A stretch of 38,366 nt of DNA from Candidatus Eiseniibacteriota bacterium (GTDB lineage Bacteria; Eisenbacteria; RBG-16-71-46): the NCBI GenBank assembly GCA_031370785.1, contig JANMQY010000124.1, positions 1 through 38,366 of the forward strand, written 5' to 3'. The translations under genes were made by a program, and so were the position numbers. Below are positions 9,542-29,533 of this stretch, in pieces (position 1 is the stretch's first letter; the number at the start of each line of letters is the position of its first letter). The notes beneath the pieces were generated by a model. That model worked only from the letters and a program-made list of their open reading frames with translations. It had not been told where the DNA came from and made no database searches.

Positions 9542-9552
9542 CGGTGACTCCG

Positions 9553-12621: not shown

Positions 12622-12625
12622 GCGA

Positions 12626-13738: not shown

Positions 13739-14997
13739 TCCGCGACCGCGAGGTCGGTCAGGGCAAGTTCGTAGTTGAGCAGCGCCCGGATGTGTTCGAG
13801 TTCGATCGAGCGGAAGGTCCGCAGGGTCTCGAACAGCTCGAGCCCGGTGATCTGACCGGCCTGGTAGTTCTGGATGGCGGTCCGGAACGCATCAGAGGCA
13901 TCGCTGAGCAGCACGCGGTCGAACTGTTGTACCTGTCGCTCCGCGCTGCGGGCGGATTCGAAGGCGTTGCGCAACGCCAAGTCCACCTCCCGTTCCACCA
14001 CCTCGAGTCGCGCTTGCGCGCTTCCCCGCGTAGCGCGCGCCTCGCTGATCCGCGCTCGCCGATCGGTCCACGGCGCGAACGGCAGGGAGAAAGAGATCTC
14101 GCCGCCCATGCCCGAGCGGTCGGAGCCCGGCACTCGGTCCAGCCCCGCGCTGATGGAGGTGAATGGCAGCATTCCGTTTCGGGCGAGCGCCACCTGTGCC
14201 CCGCCGCGCTCGACCTCGAGCCGGGTCGCTCGCAGGCGAGGACGGGACGCCATGGCCTGCCGTAAGACCGACTCGAGGCTGTCGGAGAGCGGCATGTAGG
14301 TCAGGGAATCCGCGGCCTCCAAAGGCTCGGCGGGGGCGCGAGCCATGAGAGCCTTGAGCGTGTTCCGGTCCTCTCGAAATGCACGCTCGGCCTCGACGGC
14401 ATCGTTTTCGATCCGGATGCGTTCCGACCGGGCACGCAACACATCAAGGTACCGGGCACCGCCGGTGCGAAGCCGCGTGCTGACCATCTGCTCCAGATCT
14501 GCGGCGGTCTTGCGCAGGGTCTCGAGCGTGCGGATGCTGATGGCATCGGCCTGCAGGCGTCGGTAGGCACGGGTGACGTCGCCACGTAGCTTGAGCCCGA
14601 AGGATTCGCGATTCGCCTCGGCGATGGCGACGTCGATGCGGGCAACCGCTTTCGCGCGCCCCCGCCCTCCAGGCGCGCCCAGATCCTGAGACAGGCGAAC
14701 GGCGGCGTCATGTTCCTCGCCGCTCACCGGCGTGCCGAGCTTGCCGGCCTGGTAGCTCAGGCTCGGGGCCTCGAAGGCGCCCGCCTGGCGGAGTCTGGCC
14801 CTTGCGGCCTCGAGCTCTCCGTCGGCTATGCGGAGTCCGGGGTTGCTCTTGAGCGCAAGGGCAACGCACGAATCAAGGGTCAGCGATTGTGCGTGTGCAG
14901 GGCCCGGCGCGATGACCAGCCACGTCGAGACTCCGAACGCGGCGATCGCGAGCGACGAACGCCGCAACCGACAGATGGCATGGAACGACTGATTCAA
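13735..14997 (-). CDS. TolC/CzcC family outer-membrane efflux protein (module 1)
   Basis: AHA signal cleavage site, two OEP repeats (ALKSNP.L, ASRPRL, YQAGQI..LE). Start chosen as TTG 14997 because a GGAGGA SD precedes it; the ORF track gives 15039. Confidence 0.88.
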   Translation of the reverse strand: MNQSFHAICRLRRSSLAIAAFGVSTWLVIAPGPAHAQSLTLDSCVALALKSNPGLRIADGELEAARARLRQAGAFEAPSLSYQAGKLGTPVSGEEHDAAVRLSQDLGAPGGRGRAKAVARIDVAIAEANRESFGLKLRGDVTRAYRRLQADAISIRTLETLRKTAADLEQMVSTRLRTGGARYLDVLRARSERIRIENDAVEAERAFREDRNTLKALMARAPAEPLEAADSLTYMPLSDSLESVLRQAMASRPRLRATRLEVERGGAQVALARNGMLPFTSISAGLDRVPGSDRSGMGGEISFSLPFAPWTDRRARISEARATRGSAQARLEVVEREVDLALRNAFESARSAERQVQQFDRVLLSDASDAFRTAIQNYQAGQITGLELFETLRTFRSIELEHIRALLNYELALTDLAVAE

Positions 14998-15006
14998 GGG
15001 AACACT

Positions 15007-15087
15007 CCTCCGCTGGGCGAGTAGAAGGCTCGGCCTCAATACGAACGACCGCGAGGACCTGTCGGTCTCGCGGCCGCACAGCGGAGG
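15007..15087 (-). promoter_or_regulatory. SD-sequestering stem between leader 1 and OMF gene
   Basis: mRNA CCUCCGCUG(u)GCG (15087-15075) is complementary to CGC(c)CAGCGGAGG (15019-15007), which contains most of the GGAGGA SD. Confidence 0.75.
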
Positions 15088-15090
15088 GGA

Positions 15091-15513
15091 TCAGTTGCGG
15101 AGGATGGTCTTCCTGGAAGGGGCGAACGACGAGCGCGAGTCCCGTTCGGGCGCCAGAGGCGCCTCGTTCAGGGCCGCCGGCGACTGGATCGCAGCAACGA
15201 CCGTGGGGATTGGAGGCGCCATCTCCAGGGCAGTACTCAGGGCGTAGCCACGACCACGCAGGCGGAGCGCGCTCCCAGCAATGGGGATGTCGACGCATTC
15301 GCCACAGCAATCGGACCCGATCTGAGACGCAGCAGGCTCAACGGCGTCGTTCACGGTGGGCGCGTACTGGACGCAAACATTCTGCCCGGCCTCAATGGTC
15401 AGGTGTCCGTTGGGGGCGAGACAAAGCACGGCCTGGCTCGCCCGAACCGGGAGTCCGGCGAGCGTCATGAGCGCCAGGTAACAGCAGATCGTCAGCCGAA
15501 CAGGAGAGCGCAT
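15091..15513 (-). CDS. Small exported Cys-rich leader protein 1 (140 aa, ends TILRN)
   Basis: MRSPVRLTICCYLALMTLAGLPVRA signal-like start; VLCLAPNGH, DCCGECVD; Pro/Ala-rich tail. It fills the gap between two operons and has its own promoter-like boxes. Confidence 0.8.
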   Translation of the reverse strand: MRSPVRLTICCYLALMTLAGLPVRASQAVLCLAPNGHLTIEAGQNVCVQYAPTVNDAVEPAASQIGSDCCGECVDIPIAGSALRLRGRGYALSTALEMAPPIPTVVAAIQSPAALNEAPLAPERDSRSSFAPSRKTILRN

Positions 15514-15521
15514 GCGGTGAA

Positions 15522-15551
15522 AAGCTAGTGGGCCACGCCTTGTGCTGTCAA
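15522..15551 (-). promoter_or_regulatory. Sigma70-like promoter of leader 1 (probably leaderless mRNA)
   Basis: TTGACA (15551-15546), 18 nt, TAGCTT (15527-15522), 8 nt, then ATG; no SD. Confidence 0.65.
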
Positions 15552-15617
15552 ACACGTGGACTGACGCCCGCGCCGGCCGATTCCGTCCCCGCAAGGTGAT
15601 TCGAAATGGGTCTCGCA

Positions 15618-18600
15618 TCAAACCGGGCCAGCCCCACGCTCTGGGCTCCTTGTCCTGTGGGTCACAGCATAGAGAGTCGGCAACACGATGAGCGTGAGAA
15701 TCGTCGAGGAAAGAATGCCGCCAATGACGACCGTTGCGAGCGGCCGCTGCACTTCGGCGCCGGCCCCTGTAGCGAGTGCCATCGGAACGAACCCGAGCGC
15801 AGCGACCAGCGCCGTCATGAGAATGGGCCTCAGCCGTCGAGTGCATCCATCCACAACTGCGAGGTCGACCTCCAGTCCGTCCGCGACTCGCTGCCTTACG
15901 AACGACAGCAGCATGACTCCATTGAGGACCGCGACGCCGGAGAGCGCGATGAAGCCGATCCCGGCCGTGATCGAAAACGGCATCTGGCGCATGGCCAACG
16001 CGAGCACACCTCCGGTGAGCGCCAGGGGAACTCCGCTGAAGACAACCAGCGCGTCGCGTAGTGATCCAAATGCGAGGACGAGGAGCGCCAGAATGAGCAC
16101 CAGTGCCATCGGCACCACGATCGCGAGTCGGTTGCGCGCCGTCACGAGGTTCTCGAACTGCCCGCCCCACCCGAGCCAGTAGCCAGCGGGAAGCGGAACC
16201 GATGTATCAATCGTGTGCCGGGTTTCGGCCACGAAGGAGGCGAGGTCCCGTCCGCGGACATTCGCCTGGACCACGACTCGCCGCTTGCCATTTTCGCGAC
16301 TCACCTGATTGGGTCCCTCCTCGAGTCGGATATGCGCCACGGCGTTCAAGGGCACGAACTCGACGCGCTCGTCACGAGAGGCGCCCGCAGCATCGTGTCG
16401 CCCGGGGATTGGTATCGGAAGCATCTCGAGCGCGGCGACATCATGCCTCGCCGGCTCAGGCAGGCGAACGATGATCGGGAAGCGACGATCCCCGGTAAAA
16501 AGCTCTCCCGCCTGTGTACCACTGAGAGCGGTGCGGACCACGTCCTGAACGTCCGCGAGGTTGATTCCGAAGCGTGCCACGGCCTTCCGGTCGATCTCGA
16601 TGGCGAGCGTCGGCAACCCGATCACCTGTTCGACTTTCACGTCGGTGGCCCCCCGCACGGAGCGAACGACACGGGCGATGCGATTCGCAGTCGTGAGCAT
16701 CGTGTCGAGATCGTCGCCGAATACCTTGATGGCGACATCGCTTCGCACCCCGGCGATGAGCTCGTTGAAGCGCATCTGGATCGGTTGCGTGAACTCGTAG
16801 GCGTTCCCCGGGAGCGACGAGAGCCTCCGCTCCATCTCCTCGACTACCTCCCCCTTTGGTTTCTTCGGGTCCGGCCACTGCCGTCGCGGCTTCAGCATCA
16901 CGAAGGTGTCCCCCGTGCTGATCGGCATCGGGTCATTGGCGACTTCGGCCGTGCCCAACCGCGAGAACACCTCACGCACCTCCGGCATGCTTGCGATCGT
17001 GGCCTCGACCTTGTGCTGCATCGCCACGGCTTGATCGACGCTGATTCCGGGCATGCGCACAGGCTGGACCAGGATGTCCTGCTCATCGAGAGTAGGAACG
17101 AACTCGCCGCCAAGACGCGTGGCGAGAGCGATGCACAGCACCAGAAGCGCAGCAGTTCCGGCAAGGATCGACTTGCGGTGGGCAAGTGCCCAGCGCAGCA
17201 CGGGCAAGTAGATATGCCGGACCCAACGCACCACGTGGCTTTCCGCCTCCGCAACGCGCCCGCGAACGATCAGCGCCATCAGCGCCGGCACGAAGGTGAA
17301 GGCGAGCACCAACGCTCCCGCGAGCGCAAAGAGCACGACCTCCGCGAGTGGGCGGAACATTTTGCCCTCAACGCCGGTGAGAGTCAGAATCGGTAGATAG
17401 ACGATCATGATGATTGCGACCCCAAAGAGGGTCGGGCGGGCGACTTCACGGGCGCCGGCATAGCTTTCGTGGAGCCGCTCGGGAAGGGCGAGAACGCGAC
17501 CGAGTTCGTGTTGGCGAAGGCTCAACCGTCGCAGGATGTTCTCGACCATCACCACAGCCCCATCGACAATGATCCCGAAATCAATCGCTCCGAGGCTGAG
17601 AAGATTGGCGCTGACTCGACCCTCAACCATTCCGCTCACTGCCATCAGCATCGAGAGCGGGATGACGAGCGCCACAATCAGCGCGGCGACCCAATTCCCG
17701 AGCAGCACGAAAAGCACCGCGATCACCAGAAGGGCGCCCTCGAGGAGATTCTTACGCACGGTTTCCAGCGTTGCGTCGACGAGATGAGTGCGGTCGTAAA
17801 CCGGCCGCGCCACGACGCCTGGCGGCAACGAACGATTGATCTCCTTCAGTCGCTCTCCGACACTTCTCGCCACCGCCCGGCTGTTCTCGCCGAACAGCAT
17901 GATGGCGGTGCCGATGACGGTCTCCCTCCCGCGGCTGGTAGCCGCGCCGGTGCGAAGCTCCTGTCCCAGCACGACCCTGGCAACATCGCTGACACGGATC
18001 GGCACGCCGCCACGCGTCGCAACCACGACCTGCGCGATGTCGTCGGGAGAGGACAGTCGCCCGTCGGTGTGAACCAGGTACTGCTCGCCCTTGTGCGGCA
18101 GGAATCCAGCTCCGACCGCCTGATTGTTGTGCTCGAGAGAAAGCAGGATATCGTTGAGCGTGAGGCCATAGGCGCGTAGCCGTGCCGGATCGGGTTGAAC
18201 GTCGTATTGCTTGCGGAATCCGCCGATCGTATTGACCTCGGTGACGCCCGGAGTGTTGCGAAGCTGCGGCTTGATGATCCAGTCCTGGATCTCTCGAAGG
18301 TCGGTAGCCGTATAGACAGAACCGTCGGGCTTGCGCGCGTCGGGTGCGGCCTCCACTTCCCACAGGAATATGTCGCCGAGCCCGGTCGCGATCGGACCCA
18401 TCATCGGCTCGGCGATCCCGCGCGGCAGGTTTTCCCGCGCCTCCTGCAGCCGCTCGTTCACGAGCTGTCGGGCGAAGTAGATATTCGTCCCGTCGCGAAA
18501 CACGACGGTGACCTGAGAGAGTCCGTAGCGGGAGAGTGACCGAGCCTCCACCATCCCGGGGAGGCCTGCCATCGCTGTCTCGATGGGAAAGGTGACCTGT

Positions 18601-18824
18601 CGCTCGATGTCGAGCGGAGGCAACCCCTCGACGACAGTGTTGATCTGCACCTGAACGTTGGTGATGTCCGGCACGGCATCGATCGGCAGCCGTCTGAGAT
18701 TGAACAACCCGTAGCTCGCGAGGGCGGCAGTGATGACGACGACCGACCACCGATGAACGATCGAGAAACGAAGCACGCGCTCGAGGAGCGTCTGCGCTTC
18801 CGGCAGGCTGGTATCAGTCTTCAT
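15618..18824 (-). CDS. czcA: CzcA-type divalent-metal efflux RND permease (module 2)
   Basis: LPIDAVPDITNVQVQIN, canonical TM4 GAIDFGIIVDGAVVMVEN, FTQPIQMRFNELIAGVRSD and GAEVQRPLATVV. Confidence 0.95.
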   Translation of the reverse strand: MKTDTSLPEAQTLLERVLRFSIVHRWSVVVITAALASYGLFNLRRLPIDAVPDITNVQVQINTVVEGLPPLDIERQVTFPIETAMAGLPGMVEARSLSRYGLSQVTVVFRDGTNIYFARQLVNERLQEARENLPRGIAEPMMGPIATGLGDIFLWEVEAAPDARKPDGSVYTATDLREIQDWIIKPQLRNTPGVTEVNTIGGFRKQYDVQPDPARLRAYGLTLNDILLSLEHNNQAVGAGFLPHKGEQYLVHTDGRLSSPDDIAQVVVATRGGVPIRVSDVARVVLGQELRTGAATSRGRETVIGTAIMLFGENSRAVARSVGERLKEINRSLPPGVVARPVYDRTHLVDATLETVRKNLLEGALLVIAVLFVLLGNWVAALIVALVIPLSMLMAVSGMVEGRVSANLLSLGAIDFGIIVDGAVVMVENILRRLSLRQHELGRVLALPERLHESYAGAREVARPTLFGVAIIMIVYLPILTLTGVEGKMFRPLAEVVLFALAGALVLAFTFVPALMALIVRGRVAEAESHVVRWVRHIYLPVLRWALAHRKSILAGTAALLVLCIALATRLGGEFVPTLDEQDILVQPVRMPGISVDQAVAMQHKVEATIASMPEVREVFSRLGTAEVANDPMPISTGDTFVMLKPRRQWPDPKKPKGEVVEEMERRLSSLPGNAYEFTQPIQMRFNELIAGVRSDVAIKVFGDDLDTMLTTANRIARVVRSVRGATDVKVEQVIGLPTLAIEIDRKAVARFGINLADVQDVVRTALSGTQAGELFTGDRRFPIIVRLPEPARHDVAALEMLPIPIPGRHDAAGASRDERVEFVPLNAVAHIRLEEGPNQVSRENGKRRVVVQANVRGRDLASFVAETRHTIDTSVPLPAGYWLGWGGQFENLVTARNRLAIVVPMALVLILALLVLAFGSLRDALVVFSGVPLALTGGVLALAMRQMPFSITAGIGFIALSGVAVLNGVMLLSFVRQRVADGLEVDLAVVDGCTRRLRPILMTALVAALGFVPMALATGAGAEVQRPLATVVIGGILSSTILTLIVLPTLYAVTHRTRSPERGAGPV

Positions 18825-19773
18825 GGCCGCCCGCTTCCTTCTCGAGTTCGGCCTTCAGCCAGAACGCGTTCCTGGCCACGATGCGCGCGCCGCGTTCGAG
18901 TCCCGAGACGATCTCGGTTGTCGTTCCGTCGCTTCGACCAACCGTCACCGGCTGTACCTCGAATCCCGATGAATCGGCGCGGAACACCGCCGCTCCCGTG
19001 CCCATCCGGACGATCGCATCCTCGGGCACGGCGACCGGCACGGTGACGCGTTCGACCACGGCAACCGCTGTCACGAGCCTCCCCGGCTGCCAGCGGCCAT
19101 CGCGATTTGGAAGCACGACGCGCGCATAGGTGCTTCGCGTGTCCACGTCGAGGAGCGGCCCCACGTAGCTGATCGTGCCGGTCGCCGCGATCGAAGGCCC
19201 ACCCTCGGTTCGCACGTGGACCACCTGGCCGCGGCGAATCCGACCCAGATGCTGCACATAGATGGGAAAGTCGAGCCACACGCTCGAGAGATCCGCCACC
19301 GTGTAGAGCACGGATTCGTGATCCACGACCGCGCCCGGGTTGGCGGGACGACCAACGATCGTCCCTGCCATCGGGGCGGTCACGACGTATTCACTGAGAC
19401 TTTCGTTGCTGTAGATCACGCCCAGCGGTTGTCCGCGCGTCACCCAACTTCCAAGCTCTGCCTGCATTGAAACCACGCGACCGGCATAGGTCGGGCGCAC
19501 ATCGACGCTGCGTTCCGCGTTGAGCTTGATCTCGCCGGGAAGCTCGAACGCGACCTCGATTGATTGCGCCCCTGCCCTGCCGAGAACGATTCCGGCGCTG
19601 CGAATCGCATCGTCGGAAAGCTCGACCACGGTCCCGCCATGCGGTCCGGTCGTGTGAGCCTCCTCGTGGTGTTCCTCGGCGGCAGGGTTCGGCTTCCCAC
19701 AGCCAGCGAGCGCCAGGGCGCCTGCGAGAAGCAGGCTGACCGGCACATGTAATCCCGGGATGCGTCGATTCAT
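18814..19773 (-). CDS. czcB: CzcB-like RND periplasmic adaptor, lipoprotein with His-rich N-terminus
   Basis: LAGC lipobox, EEHHEEAH..PHGG, ADLSSVW, TR...ARVVLPN..GRW.PG; ATG at 19773 overlaps the OMF stop and has a GGAGGAG SD. Confidence 0.88.
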   Translation of the reverse strand: MNRRIPGLHVPVSLLLAGALALAGCGKPNPAAEEHHEEAHTTGPHGGTVVELSDDAIRSAGIVLGRAGAQSIEVAFELPGEIKLNAERSVDVRPTYAGRVVSMQAELGSWVTRGQPLGVIYSNESLSEYVVTAPMAGTIVGRPANPGAVVDHESVLYTVADLSSVWLDFPIYVQHLGRIRRGQVVHVRTEGGPSIAATGTISYVGPLLDVDTRSTYARVVLPNRDGRWQPGRLVTAVAVVERVTVPVAVPEDAIVRMGTGAAVFRADSSGFEVQPVTVGRSDGTTTEIVSGLERGARIVARNAFWLKAELEKEAGGHED

Positions 19774-21050
19774 CGCTCCTCCTTCGGGGCGGGCAGCCCG
19801 GTTCCTGCGAGTAGTGCGAGGCGCATGCGTGCGCGCCACAGATCGGCTTGCGCGTCGATGAGAGCAAATTCGGTTTGCAGGAGGTTGCTCTGTTCGGCGA
19901 CGAGATCGAGGTAGCTCGACCGGCCGGCGCGATATCCGCGGAGCAACTCGTCCACCACCTGTTCGCGCGCGGGACGCACGCGAAGTCGCAGGGTGTCGAA
20001 GACCGCGGTGGCGGCTTGAAGCCGCTCGATGGCGGTCATGCGCGCGACGTCCAGCCTCTGCTCGGTTGCCCGCCGCTCTGCGACGGAGGCTTCCAGCTCA
20101 TGACGTGCTCCGGCGATGTCACCGGCCCCGCGATTCCAGAGTGGAAGCGGTACTTCCACACCTGCTACGAACCCGGTGCCGGGAATCTCTTCCAGCCGGC
20201 GCGCCCCGGCCGACAGAACGACGTCCGGAATCCGGGCTGCTGTGGCGACATGAACGCGGGCCATCGCCAGGGCTTCATTCGCGGAGGCACGAGCCAGCTC
20301 GGGATGAGGTTGGGGCTGCGATCGCCACAAGGCCGTATCGTCAGGCGCGGGCGCGACCAGGGAATCGAAGTCGGCCTCGGACGCGCCCCAGGTGAGGGCG
20401 AGTTCCTGGCGAGCAACATCGAGTTCCGACCCGGTGCGCCGCCGCTCCACGGCCTGCGCCAACGCCTGGCTCTGCGCTCGAAGGATCTCCAGCCGTGGCG
20501 ATGCGCCCGCTCGATACCGCTCCGTGGCCGCACGGATGGCTTGATCGGTGAGGTGTTCGCCTTCCCGAAGCTGTCGGAGACGAGTTTGGAGTGCCCAGGC
20601 AGCGATGAAACGATCGGCGGCCACGGCCAGCCCTTCGCTCCCGAGGACGTCGGTCTCGGCAGCCGCCAGCCTGTACTCGGCATCAGCGGTGGCGATGCGC
20701 GCCCGGCGGTCGCCTCCGAGTTCGAACGCCTGGCCGATCGCCGCCGTGGCTTCACGATGGCTCCCGCCCAACTGCCCGCCGAAGTTCTCTTCAGTGGCAC
20801 TCAGGGTCGGGTTCGGGCGGCGACCCGCATCCCCGATTCGCGCGCGCGCCGCCTCGGCGCGCAGGCCGGCGGGTCGAAGTCGCGGCTCGTACCGCCTCGC
20901 GAGCGCGAGGGCACGCTGAAGGGTCAGAGGACCCGTTACGACGGCAATGGTGTCCGGTGGTGTCGGCGCGGCGCCCGCCGTGGCGTCGAACGACGCAACA
21001 GCCACGACCAGCATCGCGCAGCGGCAGCCGGCTCTCGCGGATGAGAGCAC
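19770..21050 (-). CDS. czcC: CzcC/TolC family outer-membrane efflux protein (module 2)
   Basis: PNPTL...EN, Q.FELGG.R.ARI, RIPD, VPLPLWNR and YRAGRSSYLD; GTG start with AAGGAG SD 8 nt upstream. Confidence 0.9.
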   Translation of the reverse strand: MLSSARAGCRCAMLVVAVASFDATAGAAPTPPDTIAVVTGPLTLQRALALARRYEPRLRPAGLRAEAARARIGDAGRRPNPTLSATEENFGGQLGGSHREATAAIGQAFELGGDRRARIATADAEYRLAAAETDVLGSEGLAVAADRFIAAWALQTRLRQLREGEHLTDQAIRAATERYRAGASPRLEILRAQSQALAQAVERRRTGSELDVARQELALTWGASEADFDSLVAPAPDDTALWRSQPQPHPELARASANEALAMARVHVATAARIPDVVLSAGARRLEEIPGTGFVAGVEVPLPLWNRGAGDIAGARHELEASVAERRATEQRLDVARMTAIERLQAATAVFDTLRLRVRPAREQVVDELLRGYRAGRSSYLDLVAEQSNLLQTEFALIDAQADLWRARMRLALLAGTGLPAPKEER

Positions 21051-21059
21051 GCAATGATC

Positions 21060-21131
21060 TCCTTCGAGCCAGGGATGTCCGACCTTGGGCGCGCAAACGC
21101 GCGCCGGTTCAGATTCGGGCAGCTCGAAGGA
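21060..21131 (-). promoter_or_regulatory. SD-sequestering stem between leader 2 and czcC
   Basis: mRNA UCCUUCGAGC directly after the leader stop (21131-21122) is the perfect complement of GCUCGAAGGA (21069-21060), which covers the SD. Confidence 0.8.
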
Positions 21132-21512
21132 TCAACAACGAAGGATTGGCAGGCGCGTTCCGGGGGGTTCGCCGACCCAGAAGACCTGGGTTTCTGCGAC
21201 GAGCGGGGCAAGAACGACCAGGCACGATGCGGTGAACTGTGAGGCCGACACCGGCGCATGAGCCGCAAATGTGCGGGCACTTCTGACGGCGCTGAATGCT
21301 TCGTCCCGGCACGGCCCGCAGTCCGGTGTGCCGGGCGTGCCAATCGCAGCCGCGGCGGTGCCGACACCGACCCATGCGCACGCGCAGTGACCCAACTCCG
21401 GCCTCTCGCTCCCATCCGAAGAGATACAGATGGAGCCGCTCACCATCGGCGGCAAGACGAGGATCAGTTGGAGCAGCACCAGGACTCGGACGCGCCAGCT
21501 CGGAACGCTCAT
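21132..21512 (-). CDS. Small exported Cys-rich leader protein 2 (126 aa, ends PILRC)
   Basis: MSVPSWRVRVLVLLQLILVLPPMVSG signal-like start; ICISSDG..E.GHCAC and DCGPCRD align with the leader 1 motifs. Confidence 0.8.
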   Translation of the reverse strand: MSVPSWRVRVLVLLQLILVLPPMVSGSICISSDGSERPELGHCACAWVGVGTAAAAIGTPGTPDCGPCRDEAFSAVRSARTFAAHAPVSASQFTASCLVVLAPLVAETQVFWVGEPPGTRLPILRC

Positions 21513-21720: not shown

Positions 21721-22082
21721 CTCTTGCGGACTGGTTTGGTCTCCGGTTTCTCCTCGACGAGCTGCTTGATCGCCGCGAGGCGCTTGTCCCATTGCTCCGA
21801 GATCAGGTCGAGACAGCTCCCCGCCTCCACGAGCCGCTGCGGCTCGATCTCCCAGCGACTCTCCCGCCCACTGCGGCTGCCGCGCACCAGCCCGGCATCG
21901 GCGAGCATGATCAGATGCTTGGTGATCGCCTGACGCGTGATTGCGGTTCCGGTCGTGAGCTGAGCGATCGACTGGGGCCCGCCCTCAGACAGTCGGGCCA
22001 CCAGCCGCAGCCGCGTTTCGTCCCCGAGTGCGGCGAAGATGGGCGCGGAGGTCCTGAGCCGCGCCCCCGTCGACGCCGCCAT
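21717..22082 (-). CDS. ArsR/SmtB family transcriptional regulator (SRPBCC-associated type)
   Basis: FAALGDETRLRLV.RL, ITRQAITKHL..LADAGLV, GRE..W and QWD.RL motifs; TGATG coupling with the upstream gene. Confidence 0.88.
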   Translation of the reverse strand: MAASTGARLRTSAPIFAALGDETRLRLVARLSEGGPQSIAQLTTGTAITRQAITKHLIMLADAGLVRGSRSGRESRWEIEPQRLVEAGSCLDLISEQWDKRLAAIKQLVEEKPETKPVRKR

Positions 22083-22456
22083 CACTTCGACCGGTTGAGA
22101 TACTCGTCGATCGCCTTCATCTGACCTGCCCAACCCCTCTCGTTCATCTCGAATGCCTTCGCGCGACGAGCGAACGGAATCTGATCGAAGCCGGACTCGG
22201 TCACGGTGAGCACTGTGCCCTCCGCGACCTCCTCAAGGGTAAACTCGACGAGCGTGGTGGGCTCCTTGGAGTAGTCATAGCCGGGTTCGATCGGGTACGG
22301 GTGCCAGCGGAACGAGAACATTCGCTCGAGTTCCATCTTCTCGATCGTGATTTCCAACGGGCAGTCCTCGTATCCCTTGTGCTTGATCTTCCCCTGGACC
22401 CGGGCGCCGACATTCGCGTCGGTCAGGGCGCGCCATACGCGGGAGCGCGGTGCGCG
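22082..22456 (-). pseudogene. SRPBCC/AHSA1 family protein, 5'-truncated with internal deletion
   Basis: RAPRSRVWRALTDA then directly GARVQG...FSFRWHPY..YDYSKEPTTLVEF...VTESGFD...N..GW. The usual N-terminal strand and the FG.WF segment appear absent, and there is no credible start. Confidence 0.7.
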
Positions 22457-22521
22457 ATCGTAAGTCGTCCAGTGGCGCGGCCCTGGGGTACGAATCGGCG
22501 GCGCATCCAGGCCCCTCGTAC

Positions 22522-22878
22522 TCACTCGATCGTGACCTGTCCCTTCATCATGTCCATGCCGCACGCGTAGCTCAACGTGCCCGTATGCCCCGCGGGCACT
22601 TCGATGCGGACCGGCTGTCCGAGCGGCAGATCACGGCGCACGCCGAGGTCGGCGATCACGACTTCGGTCGCGCAGGTCTGGTCGGTCTTGCGCGTGAACA
22701 CGAGCGTCGTCGGCTGGCCGGAGCGCAGTTTGGTCTGGGCCGGCTCAAAGCCCTGGTCGGTGACGTCGATATGGATCTCTCCAGCCTTTGCCACGGCGCC
22801 ACCCTTCTGGCAGGCGACGAGTGTGACGAGTGCGGCAACCGCGACGAGTGAAACCAGGATCCAATGCACTGCTTTCAT
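22522..22878 (-). CDS. Cupredoxin-domain lipoprotein (CupA-like copper binding)
   Basis: LVAC lipobox; GFEP, TCATEV and YACGMDMMKG motifs; ATGA overlap with the cusA stop. Confidence 0.88.
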   Translation of the reverse strand: MKAVHWILVSLVAVAALVTLVACQKGGAVAKAGEIHIDVTDQGFEPAQTKLRSGQPTTLVFTRKTDQTCATEVVIADLGVRRDLPLGQPVRIEVPAGHTGTLSYACGMDMMKGQVTIE

Positions 22879-25800
22879 GACAGACCTCCGGTGAGTGGGG
22901 CTGGGTGAACAGGGGGTGGAGTCGAGGCGGGTTCTGCGTCCGCGACCGCGGCGCGCTCGGGAAGGCGGCGCCCCTTCCACCACGCGAAGATCGCGGGGTA
23001 GACGAGCAGTTCGAGCGCGAACGAGGTGATCACGCCGCCCACCATGGGCGCAGCGATGCGCTTCATGACGTCGGCGCCAGCGCCGTGCCCCCACAGGATC
23101 GGGAGCAGGCCGAACAGGATGGCGCACACCGTCATCATCTTGGGCCGGATGCGATGCGCGGCGCCCTCGACGATGGCCTCGGTGAGCCCGGCACGGTCGC
23201 GGATGCGGCCCGCCGCGTGATGGTCGCGATACGCGAGATTGAGGTAGAGCAGCATCACCGTGCCGGTCTCGGCGTCGAGCCCGGCCAGCGCGATCATCCC
23301 GACCCACACCGCGACGCTCAGGTTGTAGTGCAGCAACCACAGCAGCCAGATCGCGCCGATCAGCGAAAACGGCACGGCCAGCATCACGATGCCGGCCTCG
23401 GGCACCGAGCGCAGGTTGAAATAGAGCAGCACGAACACGAGCAGCAACGTGATCGGGATCACCCAAGTGAGCCGCGCCTGCGCGCGCTCGAGGTACTGGA
23501 ACTGGCCCGACCACTCGATTCGATAACCGGTGGGCAGCGTGACGCGCTCTCCAACCACGCGCTGCGCGTCGCGCACGTAGCTCCCGAGCGGCCGGTCGGC
23601 CACGTCCACCGAGACCAGGCCGACGAGCTGTCCGTCCTCCTCCTGAATCATGGAGGGTCCATTGCGGAAGCGCATCGTGGCAAGGGTCGCGAGCGGAACC
23701 TGCGCGCCGGATGAAGTCGGCACCAGCACGCGCCCGAGCGCCTCGGGATTGTCACGCAGTTCGCGTGCGTAGCGCACGGCCACGCTGTAGCGCTCGCGGC
23801 CCTCGACGGTCTGGGTGACGGCGCTGCCGCCGATCGCGGTCTCGATCACGTCCTCGATGTCGCCGACGGTGAGCCCGTAGCGCGCGGCAGCGTCGCGACG
23901 GATGTCGAAGTCCAGGAACCGCCCGCCGGTGACACGCTCGGCGAACGCGCTGCGTGTGCCGGGCACGTCGCGCACGGCATGCTCGACGGCGACGCCGATG
24001 CGTTCGATCTCGGCAAGGTCGGGGCCGAACACCTTGACGCCGACCGCGCTCCGCACGCCGGTCGCAAGCATTTCATTGCGCGTCTGGATCGGCATCCACC
24101 AGATGTTGGGCATGCCGGGGAAGCGCACCTTGCGATCCAACTCGGCGACCAGGCGCTCCCAGGTCATGCCCGCTCGCCACTCGCGTTCGGGCTTGAGCGT
24201 GATCACGGTCTCGACCATCGAGAGTGGGGCGGGATCGGTCGCGGTGCGCGCACGCCCGATCTTGCCGAACACCGTCGCCACCTCCGGCACGCTCTTGAGC
24301 TGACGGTCCATCTGCTGCAACACCGATCCAGCCTCGGTTTCGGAGATCCCGGGTGGCGCGGTCGGCATGTAGAGCAACGTGCCCTCGTTCAAGGGCGGCA
24401 TGAACTCGCTGCCGAGCGTGAGGAAGATGGGCACCGTGGAGAGCAGCAGCAGCGCGGCCCCGATCACCACGGCCCGGCGCCGGCGCACCACCCAGCGCAC
24501 CACCGGCGCGTAACCGCGCATCAGCGCGCGCGAGATCGGATGCTGATGCTCGCCGCGGATGCGCCCGCGCACGAACCACATGGTCAGCGCCGGCGTCAGC
24601 GTGATCGCGAGCAGCGCCGCGAACGCCATCGACCAGGTCTTGGTGAACGCGAGCGGCTTGAACATCCTTCCTTCGGCCCCCTGCAGCGTGAAGATGGGCA
24701 GGAACGACACGGTGATGACGAGCAGCGCGAAGAAGATCGGATGTCCGACCTCCTGCAGCCCTTCGATCACCGCCGTCGAGCGCGGGCCTTGCCGGCCGCC
24801 CTCCTCCCAGCGCTCGAGCTTCTTGTGCACGTTCTCGACCATGATGATCGAGGCATCGACCATCGCGCCGATCGCCACCGCGATGCCGCCCAGCGACATG
24901 ATGTTCGCGGTCAGGCCCTGCATCGCCATCGGGATGAACGCCAGCACCACCGCCACCGGGAGCGTCAGGATCGGGATCAGGGCGCTGCGGAAGTGGAAAA
25001 GGAACGCCACGATGATGAGGCTGACGATCAGCATCTCTTCGAGCAGCTCACGCTGGAGCGTTCTCGCGGCGCGTTGGATCAGGTCCGAGCGGTCGTAGGT
25101 GACGACGAGCTGGACTCCGGGCGGGAACGAGCCGCGCACCTCGGCCAGCCGCCGCTTGATGCCCTCGATCACACGCAGCGCGTTCTGCTTCTGGCGCATG
25201 ATGACGATGCCGCCCACTACCTCCCCGCGGCCGTTCAACTCGGCGAGCCCGCGGCGCGGCTCGGGGCCGAGATGCACCGCGGCCACGTCGCGCAACAGGA
25301 CGGGCACACCGCCGGGTCCGAGCTTGAGCGGGATCTGCTCGACGTCGGCCACGCTCTTGATGTATCCGCGGCCGCGCACGTAGTGCTCGTGCTCGGCGAT
25401 CTCGACCACGCCGCCGCCCACGTCGCCGTTCGAGCGGCGGATGGCGTCGGCGACGTCGCGGATCGAGAGCCCAAAGCTCTGGAGCTTCGCGGGCTCGAGG
25501 TCGGCCTGGTATTGCTTGACGAACCCGCCGATCGAGGCCACCTCGGCCACGCCGTCCACGCCCTGCAACCAGTAGCGCAGGGTCCAGTCCTGGAACGAGC
25601 GGAGCTGCTGCAGATCGAGTCGGCCCGTGGTGTCGATCAGCGCGTACTCGAACACCCAGCCGACGCTGGTCGCATCGGGACCGATCTGGGGCGTGACGCC
25701 CTCGGGCAGCCGGTTGCGCAGCGACGAGAGGTACTCGATCACGCGCGAGCGCGCCCAGTAGAGATCCACGTCGTCCTTGAACACCACGTACACAAACGAG

Positions 25801-26069
25801 TCGCCGATCATGGACAGCCCGCGCACGTAGCGCACACCGGGCGCGGCGCGCAGCGCGGTCACGATCGGATAGGTGATCTGGTCCTCGACCAGGTCGGGGC
25901 TGCGCCCCATCCACTCGGTCGAGATCACGACCTGGGTGTCGGACAGGTCGGGCACGGCGTCGAGCGGCGTGCGCATCAGCGCGGCGACACCGAACCCGGT
26001 GGCGATCAGCACCGCGGCCACGGTGAACGCGGGCCGCCTGGCGCAGGCGGCGATCAGGCGCTCGATCAT
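22875..26069 (-). CDS. cusA: CusA/SilA-type Cu(I)/Ag(I) efflux RND permease (module 3)
   Basis: PLDAVPDLSDTQV, YWARSRV.EYL, TM4 GGIAVAIGAMVDASIIMVEN; Met-triad contexts LLYMPT, APLSMVET, PIQTRNEML; RIRPKMMT. Confidence 0.95.
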   Translation of the reverse strand: MIERLIAACARRPAFTVAAVLIATGFGVAALMRTPLDAVPDLSDTQVVISTEWMGRSPDLVEDQITYPIVTALRAAPGVRYVRGLSMIGDSFVYVVFKDDVDLYWARSRVIEYLSSLRNRLPEGVTPQIGPDATSVGWVFEYALIDTTGRLDLQQLRSFQDWTLRYWLQGVDGVAEVASIGGFVKQYQADLEPAKLQSFGLSIRDVADAIRRSNGDVGGGVVEIAEHEHYVRGRGYIKSVADVEQIPLKLGPGGVPVLLRDVAAVHLGPEPRRGLAELNGRGEVVGGIVIMRQKQNALRVIEGIKRRLAEVRGSFPPGVQLVVTYDRSDLIQRAARTLQRELLEEMLIVSLIIVAFLFHFRSALIPILTLPVAVVLAFIPMAMQGLTANIMSLGGIAVAIGAMVDASIIMVENVHKKLERWEEGGRQGPRSTAVIEGLQEVGHPIFFALLVITVSFLPIFTLQGAEGRMFKPLAFTKTWSMAFAALLAITLTPALTMWFVRGRIRGEHQHPISRALMRGYAPVVRWVVRRRRAVVIGAALLLLSTVPIFLTLGSEFMPPLNEGTLLYMPTAPPGISETEAGSVLQQMDRQLKSVPEVATVFGKIGRARTATDPAPLSMVETVITLKPEREWRAGMTWERLVAELDRKVRFPGMPNIWWMPIQTRNEMLATGVRSAVGVKVFGPDLAEIERIGVAVEHAVRDVPGTRSAFAERVTGGRFLDFDIRRDAAARYGLTVGDIEDVIETAIGGSAVTQTVEGRERYSVAVRYARELRDNPEALGRVLVPTSSGAQVPLATLATMRFRNGPSMIQEEDGQLVGLVSVDVADRPLGSYVRDAQRVVGERVTLPTGYRIEWSGQFQYLERAQARLTWVIPITLLLVFVLLYFNLRSVPEAGIVMLAVPFSLIGAIWLLWLLHYNLSVAVWVGMIALAGLDAETGTVMLLYLNLAYRDHHAAGRIRDRAGLTEAIVEGAAHRIRPKMMTVCAILFGLLPILWGHGAGADVMKRIAAPMVGGVITSFALELLVYPAIFAWWKGRRLPERAAVADAEPASTPPPVHPAPLTGGLS

Positions 26070-26079
26070 GGCTGCCTCA

Positions 26080-27615
26080 TCATTTCTGGCCCGCCGAGCG
26101 CAGCTGACTCTCGGCGCCCACCAGAAAATTGCCCGAGGTCACGACGGTTTCTCCCGCGGTGAGGCCCGACAGCACTTCGACGTATCCGCCGGCGTGGCGC
26201 CCCAGGCGCACGTCGCGCGGCGCGAGCCGGCCACCACCGAGATCCACGAACACCACGTTGCGCTCGCCCGTCGGGAGCACCGCAGACTCGGGCACCGCAA
26301 GCCGGCGTACCGTGGGCGACATCAGGTCGACATCGACGTAGCGCCCGGGCTGGAGTCGCCCGCTGGGGTTGGAGAGCGTGATGCGAACCTCGGCCGTGCG
26401 CGTCGCGTCGTCGAGTTTCGGGAACACCGAAACCACGCCCCCCGCGAGCGGCCTCGTGTCCGAATAGGGATCGTGGATCGCCGCGCGCATACCCTCGCGC
26501 ACGTCGGTCAGGTCCTCCTGGCGCACGCTTGCCACGACCCAGATCGGGTCGAGCCGCGCAAGGCGGAACAGCACCTGCCCCGCGGTGAACGAGCTTCCCG
26601 CCACCACGTTCTTCTCGAGCACCACGCCCGAGACCGGCGAGCGCACTGGCAGCTCCTCGCGCGGCGCGCCGCGGCGCACGATGGCGGCGATGTCCGCGGG
26701 CGACAGATCCCACAGCGCGAGCCGTTCCCCGGCGGCCCGCGCCAGATCGGCAGAGCCCGAGCCGACCACGCCGCGCGAGCTGTCGGCGGCGGCGGCCTTC
26801 AGCGCCCCGAGGTATTCCTGCTGCGCCGACCACAGTTCGGGGCTGTAGACGGTGAACAGCACTCCGCCGCGGTGCACAGGCTGGCCGCTGACGCTGGCAT
26901 CCAGGCGGCGCACCCAGCCGCCGAACTTGAGCGCGACGTCGGCCTGCTGGCTTTCATCGACCGCGACGCGGCCCGGCACCCGAAGCGTCGCGTTCAGATC
27001 GCGCATCTGGACCGCCTCGGTGCGGATGTCGAGGGTCTGCCGGCGCGCCGTGTCCAGCGTGATGGTTCCCGCGACCGGGTCGCCGCCCGGCGCAGAGCCG
27101 GGCACGCCCGTGGTTCCCGACGCGCCGCCCGGCACAGCTCCCGGCGCCGCGTCGGCATCGCCGCTTCCGCTCAGGTATGCCACGCCGCGGATCGACGTGC
27201 TCACCCGGTACTCCACCTCGAACGGGGCCGCGTTGCGCGGCAGTAGCCGCAGCCGCGCTTCCCACTCGCCGATCATGGACAGCCCATAACCCGCGCGGAA
27301 TTCGCCGGAGGCGGCGCGCGTCACCTTGCCGCGGCTCTCCATGCGCGGCATTGCACCCATCGCTTCCATGACCACCATCATCTCGAGCGTGCCGTCCATG
27401 GGCCGGCCGCTCGAATCGCGCACCACCACGGTGAGCGTGTTGTCGCCGACCCGCGCGGGGTCGGGCGTGTTTCGCACACCGATGCGCCACGGACCCGCGC
27501 GGTCCGGCGTGTCCAGCGCCGGACGCCGGGACAGCGCGCAGCCCGCGGCAAGGAGCACCACCATCGCCGCCGCGCCGATCAACCAACCGCTCCACGAAAC
27601 GCTTCGCCGATTCAT
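26080..27615 (-). CDS. cusB: CusB-like RND adaptor with N-terminal Met-rich YtkA/FixH-like domain
   Basis: ATG 27615 overlaps the OMF stop; AAGC lipobox; MMVVMEAMGAMPRM...LSMIGEW domain, then YSPEL..AQQEYL, SPVSG and VVTSGNFL..AES.L. Confidence 0.88.
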   Translation of the reverse strand: MNRRSVSWSGWLIGAAAMVVLLAAGCALSRRPALDTPDRAGPWRIGVRNTPDPARVGDNTLTVVVRDSSGRPMDGTLEMMVVMEAMGAMPRMESRGKVTRAASGEFRAGYGLSMIGEWEARLRLLPRNAAPFEVEYRVSTSIRGVAYLSGSGDADAAPGAVPGGASGTTGVPGSAPGGDPVAGTITLDTARRQTLDIRTEAVQMRDLNATLRVPGRVAVDESQQADVALKFGGWVRRLDASVSGQPVHRGGVLFTVYSPELWSAQQEYLGALKAAAADSSRGVVGSGSADLARAAGERLALWDLSPADIAAIVRRGAPREELPVRSPVSGVVLEKNVVAGSSFTAGQVLFRLARLDPIWVVASVRQEDLTDVREGMRAAIHDPYSDTRPLAGGVVSVFPKLDDATRTAEVRITLSNPSGRLQPGRYVDVDLMSPTVRRLAVPESAVLPTGERNVVFVDLGGGRLAPRDVRLGRHAGGYVEVLSGLTAGETVVTSGNFLVGAESQLRSAGQK

Positions 27616-28988
27616 CGCGTCTCCTCCTCTGCCGCGTTGGGGGGCGCCTCGCCCACGGCTCGATCCAGGTCGGCGCGCGCCAGCTGGAGCGCGGCCAGCG
27701 ATTCGTCGGCTTCGAGGCGCGCGCGTAGCAGGTCGCGGGACGCATTCAGCAGGGCCAGAAAGTCCGAGCGATTCGCCTCGTATCCGGCGCGGGTCGCGGC
27801 CAGTGCACGCTCGGCGAGCGGCACCAGCCGTTCGCGCGTGATGGCCACGTCGTGCGCCTGCTCGTGAAAGCGGGCGACGGCGTCGGCGACCTCGAGCGCG
27901 ACACGGTCGCGAACGACGGCGCGCTCGGCCTCGCGCCTCGCGAGACGCGCCCGCGCCGCCTCGGCCGCGCTGTTCAGCCGGGTGAACTGGATGGGGAGGC
28001 TGAGCGCCAGACCAACGCTCGGGCGCATCGCCACATCGCTCCACATGCGGTCGTAGCCGGCGCTCACGCTGGTCTCGGGCAGACGCGCCCGGCGCGCGCC
28101 AGCGACGCCGGCTTCGCCCGCTCCCACGCGAGCATCCGCCGCCCTCAGCTCGGATCGTTGCGCGCGGGCCCGCGCCTGCAGGTCCCCGTGCATCGCGCTG
28201 GTGTCGGGCAGCGCCAGCTCGGCAGGCGGCGGCAACGCGGTCTCAGGCGGCTGGTGCATGAGCACGTTGAGCTGCGCCACCGCGACCCGGCGCTCGCGCT
28301 CGAGCATTACGGCCACATGGTCTCGCATCGCCAGCTCGACGTCGGCCTGCAGCGGGTCCTGCTGTCCGACAAGACCCGCCGCGTACTTGGCGAGCGCCAC
28401 CGATCGGAACTGGGAGAGCAGTCCGGCCAGTTCGCGATTGGCCTCGACCGCGCGCGTCACGCGCCAGTAGTCGACGTAGGTCATGCGCGCTTGGCGCACC
28501 AGATCGAGTCGAAGCGCACCCAGGTCATAGCCCATGGCATCGCGCTCGCGCTCGGCCTCGCGGCGCTGCGGCCCGCGCTGCCCGAACAGCGCCAGGGGCT
28601 GCGTGATGCCAATACGATAGCCGGCCTCCACGTCGCTTCGCCCGATCGTCCGGGGCGCGACCATCAGGTCGAGCATCGGGTCCGCCAGCACGCCGCTCGC
28701 GCGCGCTTCTGCCTTCGCTTCTCGCCATGCGGCACGCGCAGCCTCGAGCGAGGGATTGCGCTCGAGCACCCTCGCCAGCACGGCCTCGAGCGCGAGCGTC
28801 GATTCCGCGCCTGGCGTGCCGACGATGGCCGCGCCGGTTGCGTCGGCAGCGGCCGCGTGCGTCGTGACTACCGCGCGCGCAGCGCCGGCGTATGCCGCGC
28901 TCGTGACCAGCGCGACGACGAGCACCGATCGCATCATTCCGCGCCGCGAGCGGCGCGCGGTGCCAACGTTTCGCCCAATGGGCGTCAT
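27612..28988 (-). CDS. TolC family outer-membrane efflux protein (module 3)
   Basis: ERNPSL, LADPML, KYAAG...QQD.LQA, GYEANRSDFL.LL; GGAGGA SD 6 nt before the ATG. Confidence 0.92.
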   Translation of the reverse strand: MTPIGRNVGTARRSRRGMMRSVLVVALVTSAAYAGAARAVVTTHAAAADATGAAIVGTPGAESTLALEAVLARVLERNPSLEAARAAWREAKAEARASGVLADPMLDLMVAPRTIGRSDVEAGYRIGITQPLALFGQRGPQRREAERERDAMGYDLGALRLDLVRQARMTYVDYWRVTRAVEANRELAGLLSQFRSVALAKYAAGLVGQQDPLQADVELAMRDHVAVMLERERRVAVAQLNVLMHQPPETALPPPAELALPDTSAMHGDLQARARAQRSELRAADARVGAGEAGVAGARRARLPETSVSAGYDRMWSDVAMRPSVGLALSLPIQFTRLNSAAEAARARLARREAERAVVRDRVALEVADAVARFHEQAHDVAITRERLVPLAERALAATRAGYEANRSDFLALLNASRDLLRARLEADESLAALQLARADLDRAVGEAPPNAAEEETR

Positions 28989-28992
28989 GAGA

Positions 28993-29089
28993 CTTCCTCC
29001 GGGTTGAGCCGTACCCGCGCATCGGGCAGGACACAGACGAATTCACGCCCCGGCGCATGGCGCGCTCGAAGGCGTGGAACCGAAGGAAG
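28993..29089 (-). promoter_or_regulatory. SD-sequestering stem between leader 3 and OMF gene
   Basis: mRNA CUUCCUUCGG (29089-29080) pairs with CCGGAGGAAG (29002-28993): 10 bp including one G-U, covering the whole SD. Confidence 0.75.
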
Positions 29090-29092
29090 GGT

Positions 29093-29533
29093 CTAGAGTC
29101 TGAGGATGGTGGTGCCGATCGCGGCGAGCGCGAGCGGTGGACTGGAAGTAGCCGCGACGGGCGTCGCGCAGAGAACTTCGGAGGTAGGACTGACCGCGAG
29201 AGCCGGCAGAACGACGAGCGCGGTCATGTGACGCGCATCGTCTCGCCCGGCATCAACCGAAGCGGATTGCGGAAGCGCAGCGGTGGGCGCTGTGGCGCTC
29301 ACGCGACAGCAAGGGCGCGCGGCAGGAGTAGCGGCAGGTCGCGTCGCCCGGTCGCAACCCTGGCAAGCGACCCGCCCGTGCACGGCATCACGCCTGCAAT
29401 CGATGCGCGGGGCGCCGGCGGCCGGTCCGCTCTGCACCACGGCCCACAACGAAAGCAGCACGCCGGTTGCGCGAAGGACGCGCGCCGGGCGCTTGCGACC
29501 GAGCCAGCTCTGGATCGAAGTGTGGAAGTTCAT
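29093..29533 (-). CDS. Small exported Cys-rich leader protein 3 (146 aa, ends TILRL)
   Basis: Basic N-terminus plus hydrophobic segment ending PAAGA; C...CQGC...CC; Pro/Ala-rich tail SSPPLALAAIGTTILRL; first gene of the cus operon. Confidence 0.78.
   Translation of the reverse strand: MNFHTSIQSWLGRKRPARVLRATGVLLSLWAVVQSGPAAGAPRIDCRRDAVHGRVACQGCDRATRPAATPAARPCCRVSATAPTAALPQSASVDAGRDDARHMTALVVLPALAVSPTSEVLCATPVAATSSPPLALAAIGTTILRL

Follow-up and report, generated by a model that had tools for sequence, protein, structure and literature searches.

What do the small open reading frames (ORFs) do that stand at the head of the heavy-metal efflux operons of an uncultured member of Candidatus Eiseniibacteriota? 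The question is raised by a stretch of 38,366 nt (GenBank assembly GCA_031370785.1, contig JANMQY010000124.1; hereafter the window), which forms contig C24 of a 3.44-Mb metagenome-assembled genome and carries a metal-resistance island on its minus strand. Three operons of this island encode an outer-membrane factor (OMF), a membrane fusion protein (MFP), and a pump of the resistance-nodulation-division (RND) type, and each begins with such an ORF, here called the leader (Table 1). In an earlier note on this DNA, the leaders had been read as metal-sensing translational switches, in which a ribosome dwelling at the end of the leader uncovers the OMF gene's Shine-Dalgarno (SD) sequence. The most firmly grounded part of the answer given here is a conserved RNA helix, predicted to mask this SD sequence and to begin 0-3 nt past the leader stop codon.

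The layout described in the earlier note holds: ORFs of 140, 126, and 146 aa head the three operons at the positions claimed, all on the minus strand, with signal-like N-termini and clustered Cys residues, and the OMF starts lie within the claimed range past the leader stops, namely at 93 (operon 1), 81 (operon 2), and 104 nt (operon 3). The operons are of the heavy-metal efflux RND type, since all three RND proteins score above the cut-off of 701 bits of the CusA/CzcA heavy-metal model TIGR00914 (1231, 1499, and 1114 bits) and HlyD_D23 and OEP domains are found. OMF-MFP and MFP-RND junctions overlap or are at most 10 nt apart in all three operons (overlap or gap of at most 8 nt in operon 1), so that each operon has a single long gap, the spacer of 81-104 nt between leader and OMF; a control exerted on OMF initiation could thereby spread down the operon via coupling. 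A fourth copy of the leader, ending in TILRN-TGA, is found in the same genome on contig C56 (locus L004). It and the leader of operon 1 are the two closest copies, their nucleotide identity amounting to 57.6% over the whole leader ORF, 74.2% in the OMF gene, 84.9% in the 93-nt spacer, and 90% in the final 30 nt of the leader. Compared with the neighboring OMF gene, the leader as a whole has diverged far faster.

The claim that a segment of 9-10 nt, situated 0-3 nt past the leader stop, is complementary to the SD region of the OMF gene is borne out in all three operons. Post-stop arm and SD arm form 9 contiguous pairs in operon 1, 10 pairs in operon 2, and 10 pairs including one G-U in operon 3; in the C56 paralogue, the arm forms 12 pairs with the SD region, and relative to operon 1 the outermost position is changed on both sides (U/U to G/C). 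Both the minimum free energy folds and the centroid folds of the four spacers contain this helix, with one or two inner hairpins inside it, and the Z-scores of the spacer folds against shuffled sequences range from -2.1 to -4.2. A separate feature of the operon 1 fold (14985-15105, minus strand) is that the last sense codon and the stop (ACUGAUC) pair with bases just past the OMF start (GAAUCAGU); the start-codon region of OMF 1 may be enclosed in the structure, too.

Concerning the conservation of the pairing, two sets of homologous loci were compared. In the first set (35 non-redundant loci after removal of duplicates), duplex energies were calculated between the stop codon plus the following 18 nt and the 22 nt before the OMF start. 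The mean was -19.1 kcal/mol for arm and SD of the same locus vs. -14.3 kcal/mol after swapping of the SD regions, and none of 20000 permutations reached the observed value. Among the 22 loci with dissimilar arms, the respective values were -18.4 and -13.4 kcal/mol, again with 0 of 20000 permutations. Duplexes of -15 kcal/mol or better were found in 29 of the 35 loci. A scan with 21-nt windows at offsets between -150 and +45, controlled for composition within each locus, was lowest (-19.1) between offsets 0 and +3 relative to the stop, compared to -10 to -13 elsewhere, and in 23 of the 35 loci the best of up to 66 offsets was situated at most 6 nt from the stop. The first 10 nt after the stop consist of 81% pyrimidines in this set and 76% in the second set, vs. 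55% and 58%, respectively, in the next 50 nt.

The arm changes together with the flank of the SD, examples of such combinations being CTTCGCTG/CAGCGAAG, CTTCACTG/CAGTGAAG, TCCTTCGAG/CTCGAAGGA, and TCCCGGAGTC/GACTCCGGGA. When all 34 spacers were put into one MAFFT alignment, arms belonging to different subfamilies fell into different registers, and pair counts were therefore confined to 16 loci, chosen by an OMF at least 50% identical to OMF 1, a criterion independent of the RNA. In these, 80.7% of the cells of the outer helix are paired, and 4 of the 12 outer pairs are changed on both sides. Over all three helices, 75.1% of the cells pair, as compared to 41-55% when the partners are slid by 1-3 columns, and none of 500 column shuffles reached the observed percentage.

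The second set originates from a scan of metagenomes with another branch of the family (tails of the form ..LRTV[IV]LLI). The scan yielded 66 loci, including 43 non-redundant complete leader ORFs; for 37 of these, a downstream start and SD were assigned by an automatic rule, and 28 (with GC contents of 33-66%) were left once near-identical arms had been removed. The automatic rule picked a wrong start in at least one locus (L098), an error which dilutes the signal and does not create it. The mean duplex energy was -10.8 vs. -8.75 kcal/mol in permuted pairs (0 of 20000 permutations), the minimum of the scan was again at 0 to +3, and -12 kcal/mol or better was reached in 11 of the 28 loci; the signal is thus weaker, yet of the same shape. 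SD swapping, position scan, and covariation therefore agree with the earlier statement that the arm pairs differ in sequence while the pairing itself is conserved, and on these comparative grounds the SD of the pump's first gene is predicted to be held in a helix starting 0-3 nt past the leader stop.

The leaders themselves were assigned to no family by Pfam or NCBIfam. While a word-index protein search returned only the leader itself and one relative, a profile search in 1.84 billion cluster representatives yielded 127 proteins at E≤1e-3 (29 at E≤1e-10), with lengths tightly around 141 aa; among PDB sequences, the profile search had no match at E≤1. The three window leaders were aligned with 104 of 128 proteins (107 members in total), after 24 had been dropped by eye (window copies, proteins with long N-terminal extensions, truncated and tail-less ones). 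In this alignment, C31 is invariant, and G36, E41, C47, C70, C73, D75, and L138 are at least 90% conserved. A hydrophobic 10-mer is situated within the first 45 aa of 104 of the 107 members, preceded by K or R in 98; a second hydrophobic stretch exists in just two. AlphaFold2, run on the alignment (mean pLDDT 69, pTM 0.36), predicted a signal helix (residues 3-20), three short strands (28-32, 38-42, and 74-77), and a second, short helix at 80-86, with everything from residue 87 onward lacking secondary structure. Hydrophobicity counts and predicted helix together indicate that an N-terminal Sec-type signal is present. The linker between the CxxC motif and the C-terminus is rich in Ala, Pro, Ser, and Leu and unconserved in sequence; its length is 64-72 aa in 89 of 104 members, and 67 or 68 aa in 49 of these.

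Within the phylum of the window, 32 of 206 genomes (the window's own included) contain homologues, as do 20 of the 121 high-quality ones. In a collection of species representatives, seven loci with a leader were found, three of which are titled Planctomycetota or subgroups thereof. In 68 of 71 loci, an OMF homologue comes next after the leader; the other three loci are truncated or degenerate. This is in line with the earlier description of a class that ends in ILRx-stop, lacks the RAPP motif (absent from the three leaders), and heads exporters. Judged by this conservation, the leader ORFs constitute a real protein family of exported type with conserved Cys residues. A side observation concerns locus L013 (minus strand), which contains an intact leader with TILRN-TGA and a CGCCTCCG arm, followed by no OMF gene or SD; its downstream region appears degenerate.

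The family shares a C-terminal tail, R-T-x-[IV]-L-[RL]-x-stop. Among 128 proteins (P0004-P0131), position -3 is L in 117, position -2 is R in 90 and L in 25, position -4 is I or V in 105, position -6 is T or S in 93, and position -7 is R in 79; the final residue is most often C (35), N (33), or I (31). In the first set, nearly every ORF ends in ..[TP][IV]LR[NCI]-stop, with the pyrimidine tract immediately after it. Arg(-2) is written by six codons in these 35 loci and Leu(-3) by four, and the metagenome set of lower GC content exhibits the same tail residues, yet other codons. Since the tail is kept via so many synonymous codons, selection acts on it as a peptide, and the shared ILRx end seen in the three leaders thus proves to be a family hallmark at the amino-acid level, with which the enrichment over the 128 proteins agrees.

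At the RNA level, a second and weaker pyrimidine tract may be contributed by the last part of the ORF, as suggested by two observations. CTC or CTT encodes Leu(-3) in 27 of 33 loci, where the background share is 0.53, and in the metagenome set it does so in 32 of 42 loci, although a binomial p for this bias overstates the case because the loci are related; moreover, the position scan exhibits a shallow dip across the final codons (-13 to -14 vs. about -11.5 in the first set, -10.2 vs. about -8.6 in the second). Across all loci, the last leader codons (in the window 15094-15111, 21135-21152, and 29096-29113) form such a tract able to pair with the SD region. The ILR codons were considered as the main anti-SD arm, too, and were rejected, as only the shallow dip is found there.

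Of the 34 loci with enough sequence upstream of the leader, 27 contain TTGAC at a distance of 36-40 nt from the leader start, and 19 the full pattern TTGACN-17/18 nt-TAnnnT with 7-10 nt between it and the start, whereas just 4 have an SD-like tetramer ahead of the leader. Within the window, the full pattern is found at leader 1 only; leader 2 possesses a TTGACC box only, and leader 3 neither the box nor the full pattern. A scanner for the sigma-70 consensus called no promoter in 14900-29800, such that the TTGAC/TAnnnT pattern rests on the comparative counts; no terminator was called in the leader-OMF spacers in the same scan. The fixed distance of the TTGAC box and the lack of an SD suggest a promoter whose transcript has at most a few nt of 5' untranslated region, and the leader is therefore probably carried by a near-leaderless mRNA. 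A leaderless transcript is also reported for czcI2 of Cupriavidus metallidurans in the available part of PMC10127602.

These elements can be combined into the following proposal. Transcription would start on the leader ATG or no more than a few nt away from it. In the free mRNA, the 9-12 nt right after the stop would pair with the OMF SD and hide it, as folding and covariation indicate. The mRNA channel and the helicase of the ribosome reach about 11-13 nt past the first base of the P site, and the first 5-9 nt of the arm would therefore be kept single-stranded once the stop codon has entered the A site. As the arm would be covered and unwound solely by a ribosome standing on the final leader codons or the stop, OMF initiation would be limited to the time of its dwelling there, and MFP and RND would follow by tight translational coupling. 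The conserved tail would slow down the last elongation steps or termination, while the linker, with its fixed length of about 68 residues, would have the effect that the four-Cys domain stands just beyond the Sec channel as the ribosome arrives at the stop; the state of this domain would tune the dwell. If the model for the copper leader CutF is taken as an analogy, metal bound to the thiols in place of disulfide folding would result in less pulling, a longer dwell, and synthesis of the pump.

The steps of this proposal differ in strength. That the masking of the SD is relieved by translation of the leader, with MFP and RND coupled to it, is probable. The reading of the leaders as CutF-like, cis-acting, co-translationally exported sensor leaders from a different and unannotated family, to which preference is given here, is about evenly balanced between right and wrong. 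A regulated pause responding to periplasmic metal is tentative and somewhat doubtful, and it is rather unlikely that the tail constitutes a new class of proline-free arrest peptides, holding the ribosome at its last codons or at termination, which, together with linker and four-Cys module, acts as a transmembrane sensor unmasking the ribosome-binding site of the OMF gene on a near-leaderless mRNA under a periplasmic load of thiophilic metal, and thereby turns on entire RND pumps with no dedicated transcription factor. The metal-on sign is a guess from physiology. Of the switch proposed in the earlier note, those parts therefore stand that concern the conserved exported Cys ORFs, the peptide tail, and the covarying SD-masking arm, the position of which fits opening by a ribosome; the dwelling of a ribosome at the ILRx-stop and the setting of the dwell time by metal do not reach that standing.

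Several points weigh against the sensor-leader reading. No known arrest signature is recognizable in the tail, RAPP included, and a PP pair occurs within the last 15 residues of 40 of the 107 members only. A U directly follows the stop in 17 of 35 and 28 of 43 loci, a context that in E. coli favors efficient termination. The helix is weak or absent in six of the 35 loci (L013, L026, L030, L032, L010, and L039) and in about 17 of the 28 metagenome loci. Leader 3 is without CxxC at the position typical of the family, having CC there instead and CQGC further upstream. An ArsR-type gene is situated upstream of leader 2, so that a transcriptional metal sensor may also control operon 2. The logic of force sensing could equally result in a metal-off response. 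Among the public sequencing runs listed as containing this DNA, none is recorded as RNA. Finally, CzcI, which heads czcCBA, is reported in the accessible part of PMC10127602 to be a mature periplasmic protein that quenches the pump.

The last point leads to the rival explanation that survives best, although it is the less favored one: constitutive coupling, combined with a mature periplasmic accessory or brake protein that binds metal in the manner of CzcI, without programmed pause or nascent-chain sensing. The tail would then be a docking or sorting motif, and the arm/SD helix would serve stoichiometry or the silencing of spurious transcripts. The helix alone indeed accounts for coupling; in addition to the reported periplasmic quenching of CzcCBA and the lack of a known arrest signature, AlphaFold predicts a small Cys-containing sheet, and in hhalign the family profile aligns with CzcI at 40% probability (pairwise E 2.9e-4) over 68 columns comprising signal, first Cys, and DCGxC. 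However, an unconserved linker without predicted structure, whose length is nevertheless kept within about 4 residues, would be odd for a docking tether, whereas it is a hallmark of the CruR/DUF2946 leaders; the leader diverges far faster than the adjoining OMF gene; the motif runs exactly up to the stop in proteins of lineages with 33-70% GC; and CzcI has a different tail, its post-stop hairpin lacking an SD. This explanation and the sensor-leader reading are not mutually exclusive.

It is improbable that the signal lies mainly in the RNA, i.e., that the tail represents a second anti-SD tract (AUC CUC CGN, GUC CUU CUG) within an element for mRNA stability, processing, or control by Rho or a terminator, for which the identity of the peptide would be irrelevant. 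The codon bias at Leu(-3) and the shallow dip of the scan in both sets are what this view would explain, no other part of the locus is as well conserved as the intergenic region, and CruR acts through Rho (PMC9426467, available part). The tail is nevertheless kept as amino acids through synonymous codons, its positions -7 and -6 (R, T) contribute nothing to a pyrimidine tract, and the shift of the SD flank from CAGCGAAG to CAGTGAAG takes the post-stop arm along while the codons are unchanged. No terminator-like site was called in the leader-OMF spacers, and these, being strongly structured, should be poor loading sites for Rho.

Least of all is to be said for chance, namely that any pyrimidine stretch pairs with a strong GGAGG-type SD in a GC-rich genome and that the ORFs are unlinked to the OMF genes: swapped arm/SD pairs still average about -14 kcal/mol, and part of the energy is thus generic CCUCC/GGAGG complementarity, but in two independent sets none of the 20000 permutations matched the pairs native to the loci, with a minimum confined to the stop position, arm and SD flanks covary, and 68 of 71 downstream genes encode an OMF, which leaves this explanation very improbable.

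The features of the window are compiled in Table 1.

Table 1. Features of the metal-resistance island in the window (positions in nt; inner hairpin 2 was located by hand counting)
Feature	Position	Strand	Remarks
Leader ORF 1	15091..15513	-	140 aa; signal-like N-terminus, CCGEC, tail SRKTILRN-TGA
Leader ORF 2	21132..21512	-	126 aa; tail TRLPILRC-TGA
Leader ORF 3	29093..29533	-	146 aa; tail IGTTILRL-TAG
Anti-SD arm 1	15079-15090	-	tcccctccgctg; begins at first base past stop
SD arm 1	15005-15015	-	cagcggaggag; contains OMF Shine-Dalgarno
Inner hairpin 1	15049..15073	-	inside arm/SD helix
Anti-SD arm 2	21122-21131	-	tccttcgagc; post-stop
SD arm 2	21060-21069	-	gctcgaagga
Inner hairpin 2	21088..21105	-	ggcgcgc-gttt-gcgcgcc
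Anti-SD arm 3	29080-29089	-	cttccttcgg; 3 nt past stop
SD arm 3	28993-29002	-	ccggaggaag
TTGACA box	15546..15551	-	38 nt before leader 1 ATG
TAGCTT	15522-15527	-	8 nt between it and leader 1 ATG; no SD
Operon 1	15513..9553	-	leader 1, OMF, MFP, RND
Operon 2	21512..15618	-	leader 2, OMF, MFP, RND
Operon 3	29533..22875	-	leader 3, OMF, MFP (YtkA-like domain), RND
OMF gene 1	13735..14997	-	TTG start at 14997
MFP gene 1	12626-13738	-	
RND gene 1	9553-12621	-	
OMF gene 2	19770..21050	-	GTG start at 21050
MFP gene 2	18814-19773	-	overlaps preceding gene
RND gene 2	15618-18824	-	overlaps preceding gene
OMF gene 3	27612..28988	-	ATG start at 28988
MFP gene 3	26080-27615	-	N-terminal YtkA-like domain (PF13115), then CusB-type barrel-sandwich domain
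RND gene 3	22875-26069	-	
AHSA1/SRPBCC gene	22082-22564	-	between RND 3 and leader 2
ArsR-type helix-turn-helix gene	21717-22133	-	between RND 3 and leader 2
P-II-like gene	9203-9550	-	directly past RND 1
Zn/Cd-type P1B ATPase	6960-9179	-	
Cation diffusion facilitator (CDF) transporter	6080-6973	-	
NicO-type transporter	5103-5936	-	

Beside the operons of leaders 1 and 3, no regulator gene was identified, and a search with Rfam at gathering thresholds detected no family anywhere in the window. A fifth locus with OMF and a CusB-like MFP exists in the same genome on contig C68 (L111, 24000-30500; 593-3453, minus strand) and is without a leader of the family; the ORF upstream of its OMF encodes 212 aa and belongs to no Pfam family.

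Nascent exported chains that sense metal are so far represented by two studied cases (CruR, 2022; CutF, 2023-2025), both of them proline-based and from a single Pfam family. The leaders described here constitute a well-defined second family, marked by an invariant non-proline tail that closes at the stop, by a linker resembling a ruler, and by an anti-SD which lies next to the stop and covaries. If the sensor-leader reading is true, the sensing principle would be independent of polyproline or EF-P, the tail would be a candidate for a new arrest or termination-pause motif, and the control of heavy-metal RND pumps in uncultured sediment bacteria would find an explanation in a design used four times in one genome and across several phyla. 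Leader and spacer together would make up a compact and portable cassette.

Among known systems, the comparison with DUF2946 leaders is the closest. With the model PF11162 (DUF2946), the three leaders gave no match at E≤10, and of the 107 family members two matched, the best at E 0.025, below threshold. A six-frame search of the genome with the same model at E≤10 found matches elsewhere, none at the leaders, and in the Atlas a cluster with 23% DUF2946 appears only as a distant neighbor of the leader family. Because the model fails to detect it, the family is not to be counted as a member of DUF2946; it may nevertheless be a distant relative, sharing signal, early Cys, CxxC, ruler-like spacer, and C-terminal motif. 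The genome's best DUF2946 match is another locus (L042, C52:4754-5020; 21.5 bits vs. a cut-off of 23.7), which contains three in-frame stops and may be a decayed or miscalled CutF-like gene.

The earlier note had regarded the class as uncharacterized, which applies to one part of it. No published description was found of the leader family, its tail, or an anti-SD placed right next to the stop; this negative does not extend to File S1 of PMC9973294, which lists CutF-like proteins (40 of the 107 members would pass its PP filter). However, the general idea of an exported Cys leader on a metal RND operon is already in print, since the accessible part of PMC9973294 reports that CutF-like/DUF2946 leaders most often precede genes for RND outer-membrane factors. 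The same part of that source lists CzcI and CzcI2 as lacking the Pro motif, and PMC12992588, as far as its available text goes, concerns RAPP-like motifs only.

SecM-secA and MifM-yidC2 share with the proposal the principle that a ribosome held near the end of an exported ORF opens an SD-hiding helix, the arrest being modulated by the pulling of export. SecM, MifM, and TnaC differ in that they sense export capacity or tryptophan and in that their arrest motifs are unrelated to the leader tail. CzcI (C. metallidurans, plasmid pMOL30) is likewise a small signal-bearing ORF directly upstream of czcC, with an early Cys and DCGxC about 40 residues later, but it comprises 115 aa and ends in QWQRLA, a tail unrelated to that of the leaders. 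In the czcI-czcC spacer of pMOL30 (L044:45525-45600), a hairpin of about 12 bp directly follows the czcI stop (cggcgagacga...tcgtctctcgccg); it differs from the helix described here in containing no recognizable SD of czcC.

CruR (Bp2923 of Bordetella pertussis, DUF2946) resembles the leaders, as far as the available part of its description goes, as an upstream ORF of exported type with CxxC, a C-terminal motif, an unconserved spacer of fixed length, and a metal-related operon downstream; for CruR/DUF2946, the spacing between Cys motif and C-terminal motif is given there as a fixed 45 residues (PMC9426467). According to the same part, CruR carries RAPP three residues before its end, acts by Rho-dependent termination in an unstructured spacer of 162 nt, is copper-off, and controls an uptake transporter (PMC9426467). 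The spacers of the leader family are 60-116 nt long, strongly folded, and mask the SD.

CutF of Rhodobacter capsulatus (cutFOG) shares most with the leaders: it is a small ORF heading a metal-detoxification operon, with a Sec-type signal, four Cys in the mature part, a conserved C-terminal motif, and an anti-SD stem that masks the SD of the next gene. In the model put forward for it, nascent CutF binds periplasmic Cu, forms no disulfides, and stays arrested, whereby the anti-SD stem melts (PMC9973294; bioRxiv 10.1101/2025.02.05.636593; accessible parts of both). The Cys positions correspond closely, the first being near mature residue 5 and a CxxxC near 41-45 in CutF, as compared to about 5 and 44-47 here, if cleavage near residue 26 is assumed. 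Despite this similarity, there are distinct differences: the leader family would control a whole OMF-MFP-RND pump, occurs in four copies per genome, and is probably near-leaderless; its Cys motif is about 68 residues distant from the C-terminus instead of 45; and its tail, R-T-x-[IV]-L-[RL]-x-stop, is without PPP or a Pro-rich run. The anti-SD, moreover, is situated 0-3 nt past the stop, and a ribosome at the stop codon itself would therefore be the unmasking state.

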